Below, in pieces: positions 13,692 through 13,741 of a stretch of 64,000 bases of DNA. The stretch is taken from the NCBI RefSeq assembly GCF_056712565.1, contig NZ_CM160072.1; one strand, 5' to 3'. The stretch's first letter is position 1. The number at the start of each line of letters is the position of its first letter. The translations under genes and the position numbers were made by a program. The notes under the pieces are model-generated. The model was not told the origin of the DNA and searched no databases. It was given only the letters and a program-made list of their open reading frames with translations.

Positions 13692-13741
13692 AAGAATGAG
13701 GAAGATGCGTCGAGCCACAGAAACGCATCTTCCTCATTCTT
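13692..13741. repeat. Perfect 18-bp-stem palindrome inside fimS
   Basis: AAGAATGAGGAAGATGCG (13692-13709), 14-nt spacer, CGCATCTTCCTCATTCTT (13724-13741). Confidence 0.85.

Follow-up and report, generated by a model that had tools for sequence, protein, structure and literature searches.

The invertible element fimS of Escherichia coli lies between fimE and fimA, where it is bounded by 9-bp inverted repeats and organised by Lrp, Fis and IHF sites, with the IHF-2 site located inside the element. A Rho-dependent terminator within wild-type fimS ends fimE transcripts in the OFF state alone (Joyce & Dorman 2002; Hinde et al. 2005); in the ON state, fimE transcripts are reported to cross the switch into fimA. 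Here we describe an allele of fimS found in a stretch of 64,000 nucleotides from contig NZ_CM160072.1 of assembly GCF_056712565.1 (the window; all coordinates are window positions). The allele shares with wild-type fimS its locus, the 9-bp inverted repeats, the fimA promoter (PfimA), a match to the IHF-2 site and a C-rich tract in the OFF-sense strand, but differs from it in its length (327 instead of 314 bp), in an inverted duplication that turns the start of the C-rich tract into a hairpin, and in the replacement of the recombinase half-site at the left inverted repeat (IRL). It represents a variant allele of fimS, not an element of a new kind.

A natural length variant of fimS is also known from O157:H7, in which a 16-bp deletion locks the switch OFF; small insertions and deletions in fimS can thus have large phenotypes. 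This deletion differs from the changes described here in being clade-wide and not templated, and it does not share their site, as it maps to window-equivalent positions 13812-13827, between IHF-2 and the -35 element of PfimA. Parallels to the sequence changes themselves are provided by quasipalindrome mutations (Ripley model; Lovett laboratory), in which template switching homogenises or extends the arms of inverted repeats and which are stimulated by DNA-protein crosslinks in E. coli. With respect to function, Rho utilisation (rut) sites are known to require C-rich RNA with little structure, and hairpins that mask such sites block Rho, as in the pgaA leader. We give about even weight to the proposition that the allele is a genuine private mutation of the template-switch type with a plausible predicted effect on fimE termination.

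Structure and occurrence of the palindrome

A perfect palindrome is present in the centre of fimS in this sequence, its two arms of 19 nt each being 100% complementary and separated by a spacer of 12 nt. The initial annotation had described an 18-bp stem with a 14-nt loop; the perfect hairpin exists, but one extra T/A pair closes the stem and alters both sizes. The palindrome is composed as follows:

13692-13710: left, native arm, AAGAATGAGGAAGATGCGT, the same in K-12, in the sequence type 95 (ST95) genome AH19D088 and in O157
13711-13722: spacer or loop of 12 nt, CGAGCCACAGAA, native sequence
13723-13741: right arm, ACGCATCTTCCTCATTCTT, of which only ACG (13723-13725) and TT (13740-13741) are native bases
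13726-13739: private 14-bp insertion, CATCTTCCTCATTC, the exact reverse complement of 13694-13707

The origin of the right arm became apparent from alignments of the window with K-12 fimS in the same orientation and with the closest genome, the ST95-type AH19D088: wild-type sequence accounts for the left arm, the spacer, ACG and TT in both comparisons, and the remainder of the right arm is the insertion. Its placement is unambiguous, with flanking microhomologies of 3 nt (ACG) and 2 nt (TT), and apart from the insertion the central fimS tract is identical in K-12, ST95 and O157. The earlier suspicion that one arm could be a local duplication relative to reference alleles was therefore correct, the duplication being an inverted one of 14 bp. 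The palindrome is non-random because its one arm was templated, in inverted form, by the other; the chance expectation for perfect 19-bp inverted repeats spaced by at most 60 nt is about 1.4e-5 in 64 kb of such composition, and no close inverted repeat in the window is longer, with the next perfect ones measuring 13 nt. RNA folding of both strands, which had been proposed as a check, yielded a stable hairpin in each case (+ strand: -35.3 kcal/mol, z = -6.4; - strand: -33.1 kcal/mol, z = -7.0), and none of 200 shuffled sequences folded as well. As DNA, the palindrome folds at about -20.4 kcal/mol.

The insertion appears to be private to this sequence. In a search with an 85-nt core it was found in 0 of 4,693 matching complete E. 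coli genomes; the best match elsewhere was 71/85, i.e. wild type plus a 14-nt gap, and 4,050 genomes fell into the band of 80-90% identity, with all of the matches listed there showing exactly 71/85 bases. The insertion junction likewise had no matches among the GTDB species representatives or in the contigs of 241 million metagenome records, two scans for which no positive control is possible, and the insertion was not found in 19 further loci that we retrieved. Comparison with reference fimS alleles found the palindrome in none of them, rather than identically in all. Judged by these comparisons, the palindrome is a one-off mutation or an assembly error and not a conserved regulatory element. 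The junctions and strings by which the allele can be recognised are:

fimS, novel junctions diagnostic of this allele: GAAACG joined to CATCTTCC, and GTTACG joined to ACAAAC
junction-spanning strings of this allele: GAAACGCATCTTCCTCATTCTTAGC and GTTACGACAAAC
corresponding strings of the wild type: GAAACGTTAGC and CGCGGACAAAC

The centre of wild-type fimS is spanned by an open reading frame of 62 amino acids that is often annotated by gene callers and is on record in 265 gene-index blocks. The insertion frameshifts this reading frame to one of 36 amino acids (13659-13769, + strand) that spans the palindrome and was present in 0 gene-index blocks; we saw no evidence of coding for this central frame.

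These data also bear on the suggestion of the initial annotation that the palindrome could act as an RNA stabiliser, a terminator or a protein site. That it is an evolved regulatory hairpin of fimS biology, be it an intrinsic terminator, a stabiliser or a palindromic operator, could be argued from the perfect and very stable stem and from its location in a transcribed regulatory region. Stable stem-loops in 3' untranslated or read-through regions are indeed shared by intrinsic terminators and stabilisers of the repetitive extragenic palindromic (REP) type; unlike these, the fimS hairpin lacks a U-tract, has a stem of 42% GC, and is neither repeated elsewhere nor conserved. A scan of 13400-14100 returned 0 terminator-like sites, the tails following the stem being AGCUUUACAU (+ strand) and CUCUCCAAAA (- strand), and an intrinsic terminator is rejected. 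The search for an Rfam family gave only matches resembling miRNA precursors, at 16-28 bits compared with gathering scores of 50-180. Known small RNAs of the fim region map elsewhere, with FimR antisense to fimD and FimR2 in the fimA-fimI spacer, and transcripts from PfimA never include the palindrome. A conserved palindromic operator was rejected too: the dyad is missing from all other alleles, no mapped CRP site lies there, and a sequence confined to one genome is hardly likely to be an operator. With the palindrome absent from every other fimS examined, the evolved hairpin is effectively refuted by the comparative data, and we consider it hardly tenable.

Position of the palindrome in the switch

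The elements of the switch in the window are:

12920-13516, + strand: fimE, with its stop codon 176 nt upstream of the palindrome and a transcript that crosses the palindrome in both switch states
13566-13574: IRL, 9-bp inverted repeat TTGGGGCCA
13798-13810, + strand: IHF-2 consensus match TATCAAACAGTTA, found with the pattern WATCAANNNNTTR
13844-13873, + strand: PfimA, with -35 TTGAGA, an 18-nt spacer and -10 TATGAT, firing toward fimA and beginning 103 nt downstream of the palindrome
13884-13892: right inverted repeat (IRR), 9-bp inverted repeat TGGCCCCAA
14012-14560, + strand: fimA, downstream of fimS

The positions of IRL and IRR place the palindrome in the middle of fimS, and PfimA, which matches 10 of 12 promoter positions, points at fimA, so that the switch is in the ON orientation; on both counts the initial annotation holds. 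ON is a rare orientation among assemblies, seen in 243 of 4,715 (5%) complete E. coli genomes matching this region. Against the properties of canonical fimS (314 bp with distinct inner half-sites), the allele stands out both through its length and through the inner 27 bp, which are identical, in inverted order, at the two ends.

The expected encounters of transcripts with the palindrome follow from this layout. That a fimE read-through transcript would carry the + strand hairpin in the ON state is supported by the published read-through into fimA. In the OFF state, it is again the fimE transcript that meets the palindrome, now reading the other strand. It had been supposed that the fimA-promoter transcript would encounter the palindrome in the OFF orientation, and this proved to be mistaken: PfimA adjoins IRR and fires outward, and hence never crosses the palindrome in either orientation. 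A weak sigma-70-like match lies just upstream of the palindrome (13640-13669, + strand; TTGTTA, 18-nt spacer, TATATT; 9 of 12 positions); the wild type has it as well, and its occurrence is compatible with chance (3 sites found compared with 2.3 expected).

A second private change beside IRL

The palindrome is not the only departure from wild type in this fimS. A block directly inside IRL has been replaced by an inverted copy of the block inside IRR:

13575-13601: IRL-proximal replaced block, with 28 wild-type bases exchanged for 27 bases identical to the reverse complement of 13857-13883
13857-13883: IRR-proximal inner native block, which holds the -10 element of PfimA and is the template of the copy at 13575-13601

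Through this change the perfect terminal inverted repeat grows from 9 to 36 bp (49 nt at 90% with the flanks), and the inner recombinase half-site is lost together with the sole HinfI and BstUI sites of fimS. Its junction was found nowhere else in the complete E. coli genomes, the GTDB representatives, the metagenome contigs or the retrieved loci. As a consequence of the replacement, both recombinase junctions are identical in either orientation, the IRL junction being OFF-like and the IRR junction ON-like. FimE has been reported to be unable to bind OFF-state half-sites; FimE would probably lose substrate discrimination on this allele, and FimE-driven ON-to-OFF switching should be impaired because of this inability to bind. 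Such an impairment fits with the switch being found ON.

Outside fimS, the window is almost indistinguishable from its relatives. Over 7650-19663 it differs from AH19D088 at two places only, both in fimS; across 1-41663, the differences outside fimS amount to one homopolymer indel (at about 4763) and one single-nucleotide polymorphism (38724), with 19664-31662 identical, and 39001-64000 shows 100.0% identity to several ST95 genomes. The indel is a 1-nt deletion in an A/T homopolymer that frameshifts the toxin gene topAI (yjhX; 4712-4936, - strand), giving a product of 74 amino acids with an altered C-terminus instead of 85 amino acids. This deletion occurs in 0 of 1,661 RefSeq complete genomes, and the 74-residue TopAI product is widespread in the assembly collection (49 blocks), many of the assemblies concerned being visibly error-rich; none of the loci retrieved through this product carried the fimS junctions. 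Either this homopolymer in topAI is repeatedly miscalled, or a real frameshift has arisen there more than once.

Two side observations concern the remainder of the window. The polymorphism at 38724 (T here, C in AH19D088) falls inside a gene for an Rpn-family recombination-promoting nuclease (38329-39249). A REP-like inverted repeat, GCCTTATCCGGCCTAC, and two perfect 13-nt stem-loops are located at 51418-51461, 53824-53853 and 63147-63177, and the two stem-loops may be terminators or operators.

The ST95-type background is also informative with regard to deliberate construction of the allele, for example as a half-site or locking construct. Both changes in fimS are precise, and swaps of the sequences flanking the inverted repeats have been made experimentally to study FimE specificity; those experiments were performed in K-12, however, and not in an ST95-type strain. 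Cloning scars or restriction sites are absent, and the junctions use microhomology in the way that spontaneous events do. Published locked-ON constructs are said to differ, and IRL itself is intact in this allele. An engineered or synthetic switch is hence, in our judgement, very improbable.

Origin of the two changes

Both changes in fimS can be described alike, as OFF-orientation, i.e. complementary-strand, sequence patched into an ON backbone at short microhomologies, which are the 9-bp inverted repeat and 1-2 nt in case of the IRL block and ACG and TT in case of the central insertion. A polymerase hopping between strands and a consensus hopping between read populations would formally give identical products, and it is between these origins that the evidence has to be weighed.

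In case of a polymerase event, 13726-13739 would have been copied from 13694-13707 as its reverse complement by a polymerase that switched to the complementary strand, in a hairpin-primed or a cross-fork manner, and, in the IRL-block swap, the bases inside IRR would have been copied in inverted form with the 9-bp inverted repeat as primer. We infer that the two changes arose in a single complex event or in two linked events of replication or repair. Tyrosine recombinases become covalently linked to DNA at the inverted repeats, and such FimB/FimE-DNA intermediates may have triggered the events; the resulting changes may then have been kept because they bias the switch. The pattern of bases is what would be expected of template switching: the new bases, which the ancestor lacks, correspond exactly to the reverse complement of neighbouring sequence, and the 29 differing columns of the window fimS fall into exactly two clusters, each of them an exact complementary-strand copy. 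With quasipalindrome mutations the allele shares the exact reverse-complement copy, the perfected inverted repeat and the microhomology at the junctions. It differs from them in that the prior repeat at the centre is only 3 bp, in that the outcome is a net insertion instead of an in-register correction, and in that the companion event spans 309 bp between the inverted repeats. An origin in the cell is also suggested by the nature of the junctions, which neither de Bruijn assembly nor split-read alignment can invent because the junction k-mers exist in neither wild-type state.

Several observations nevertheless weigh against a template-switch origin. The repeat that pre-existed at the centre of fimS, CGT/ACG, is a quasi-palindrome of only 3 bp and hence a poor primer for a classical quasipalindrome event, in comparison to the 9-bp inverted repeats available to the companion event, and at the return junction of the IRL block the microhomology extends over no more than 1-2 nt. 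Two rare complex events within 327 bp, with almost nothing else in 64 kb, are suspicious, and neither of them was seen in any other genome among about 4,700. The allele rests on a single consensus sequence, and the topAI homopolymer deletion, recurrent as it is in error-rich assemblies, hints that this consensus is imperfect.

Several of these points lend weight to a different explanation, namely that ON and OFF cells were mixed in the culture and that, during long-read consensus building or polishing, OFF sequence was stitched into an ON backbone at short shared k-mers, with the IRL block and the 14-nt insertion as the resulting patches, so that the palindrome would not be present in the organism. 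Each of the two private changes places exact OFF-state sequence within a backbone that is ON, no second copy of the allele was found, and the source genome is outside the RefSeq complete set. Moreover, blends of ON and OFF fimS do occur in public assemblies:

UID2404240036 (NZ_CM143255.1, 1395436-1396075; RefSeq complete): 332-bp fimS with 34 differing columns in 18 clusters and perfect flanks
L016 (GCA_052952975.1, JBQMUR010000011.1; GenBank contig-level): 321-bp fimS with 73 differing columns in 15 clusters
L015 (GCA_052662545.1): 312-bp fimS with 20 differing columns in 12 clusters

The blend in UID2404240036 is almost certainly a mixed-population consensus artefact. Like the window allele, UID2404240036 and L016 contain embedded OFF-derived sequence and exceed 314 bp, and L016 goes over to OFF-derived sequence directly after the same central CAGAAACG and carries an OFF-derived patch beside IRL, which is a further point against a polymerase event. 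The two differ from the window allele in being noisy, with 15-18 scattered clusters, whereas the window holds two exact patches and is otherwise wild type, the remainder of the window being essentially error-free. Global alignment of OFF onto ON sequence, as a model of a naive mixed consensus, gave messy gaps under all four scoring schemes and never produced a lone 14-nt insertion between ACG and TT or a clean swap of the IRL block, a result that is not decisive given that the real pipeline is unknown. Furthermore, the interior of fimS is the same duplex in ON and OFF, so interior reads never conflict and heterogeneity of orientation should leave the centre of the element undisturbed; with split alignments, OFF reads fully support the ON interior, and polishing with short reads should delete a 14-nt insertion. 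The right-hand junction, finally, was left untouched despite the symmetry of the problem. Taking both sides together, we regard an artefact of this kind as the main competing explanation and take it seriously, though we hold it to be somewhat less likely than a genuine mutation.

Predicted consequences for fimE termination

If the palindrome is a genuine template-switch product, a plausible effect concerns the OFF-specific terminator. Two cis elements have been reported for this terminator, a boxA motif and, near the middle of the switch, some 40 bp that are rich in C and poor in G. The corresponding feature in the window is:

13670-13710, - strand: C-rich/G-poor tract ACGCATCTTCCTCATTCTTCTCTCCAAAAACCACCTCATGC, located on the fimE-sense strand in OFF and putative rut core of the OFF-specific terminator

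We take this tract to be the rut element on the basis of its central placement, and its coordinates are provisional. Its composition agrees with that of a rut site, for which C should exceed G on the transcribed strand: the 61-nt stretch 13650-13710 contains 19 C and 2 G in the OFF sense, and the maximum excess of C over G per 78-nt window of the wild type is 18 in OFF and 0 in ON. The first 19 nt of the C-rich tract are complementary to the native arm of the palindrome. In the OFF-sense RNA, the inserted arm precedes the tract by 12 nt and can pair perfectly with its start. Accordingly, the calculated probability of being unpaired falls from 0.53-0.76 in the wild type to 0.02 in this allele for the first 19 nt of the tract, and from 0.74-0.81 to 0.43-0.52 for the whole 41-nt tract in OFF-sense RNA. 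The low degree of structure expected of a rut site is hence predicted to be lost for the first 19 nt, with the other 22 nt remaining open.

In the OFF state, the fimE transcript would carry a hairpin whose 3' arm is formed by the first 19 nt of the rut-like tract, leaving about half of the Rho loading region double-stranded and weakening the OFF-specific, Rho-dependent termination of fimE. This is a reasonable prediction from the folding calculations, because rut sites need unstructured C-rich RNA and because masking by a hairpin blocks Rho in case of pgaA. The window hairpin resembles the masked rut sites of the pgaA leader (CsrA) and of riboswitch-controlled Rho termination in that a C-rich Rho loading site is sequestered; those systems are evolved and conditional, whilst masking in the window would be constitutive, accidental and confined to about half of the tract, and is predicted only. 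The orientation-dependent RNA effect suggested in the initial annotation survives in this form, as predicted masking of the rut-like tract in OFF, and not as the stabiliser or terminator that had been proposed. In the ON state, the fimE-to-fimA read-through RNA would gain a stable hairpin that could at most serve as a barrier to 3' exonucleases, and at the DNA level the insertion would add 14 bp, or about 1.3 helical turns, between the Lrp/Fis sites and IHF-2.

Against this prediction, approximately 22 nt of the C-rich tract, i.e. about half of it, are calculated to remain accessible, as is C-rich/boxA-like sequence further upstream, and a hairpin that separates rut subsites is tolerated by Rho, as in the rutA-boxB-rutB arrangement of lambda tR1. 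Both points speak against a consequence for termination and in favour of the allele being genuine but a neutral or slightly deleterious passenger, with a hairpin that has no measurable effect on fimE termination or on inversion. The restriction of the allele to one genome, with no sign of selection or spread, agrees with such a passenger, and the half-site change may already abolish FimE action, which would make control of the fimE mRNA moot. On the other hand, by far most E. coli genomes share an unchanged central tract, which is also identical among O157, K-12 and ST95 and points to constraint, a perfect 19-bp stem across the rut core is a strong perturbation, and the switch was caught in an orientation that is rare in assemblies. 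We regard a neutral passenger as rather unlikely. This estimate overlaps with those given for the other explanations and is not meant to add up with them to one, as a passenger disputes only the functional effect.

Implications

The allele has a practical consequence. The published orientation assay for fimS uses BstUI, and assays based on HinfI or BstUI would misreport a strain with this allele, in which the sites are lost. If the allele is an artefact, it serves as a warning that phase-variable inversions can leave clean-looking chimeric patches in assemblies besides obvious noise; blended fimS is present in at least one RefSeq complete genome (UID2404240036) as well as in a GenBank contig-level assembly (L016).

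If the template-switch allele is real, it constitutes a natural experiment both on the Rho-dependent orientational control of fimE, with the rut tract half-buried, and on the half-site asymmetry behind FimE directionality, and it would clearly exemplify how, in a pathogenic lineage, a phase-variation switch is remodelled by templated strand-switch mutagenesis. A further-reaching version, which we think improbable, is that this is an ON-biased allele of a hyper-piliated ST95 extraintestinal pathogenic E. coli, in which template switching provoked by the recombinases has removed FimE directionality, through junctions that no longer depend on orientation, and has uncoupled fimE expression from orientation by enclosing the rut core in a hairpin. 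Were this to be true, it would show strand-switch mutagenesis to be capable of reshaping invertible switches at the very sites where they recombine.

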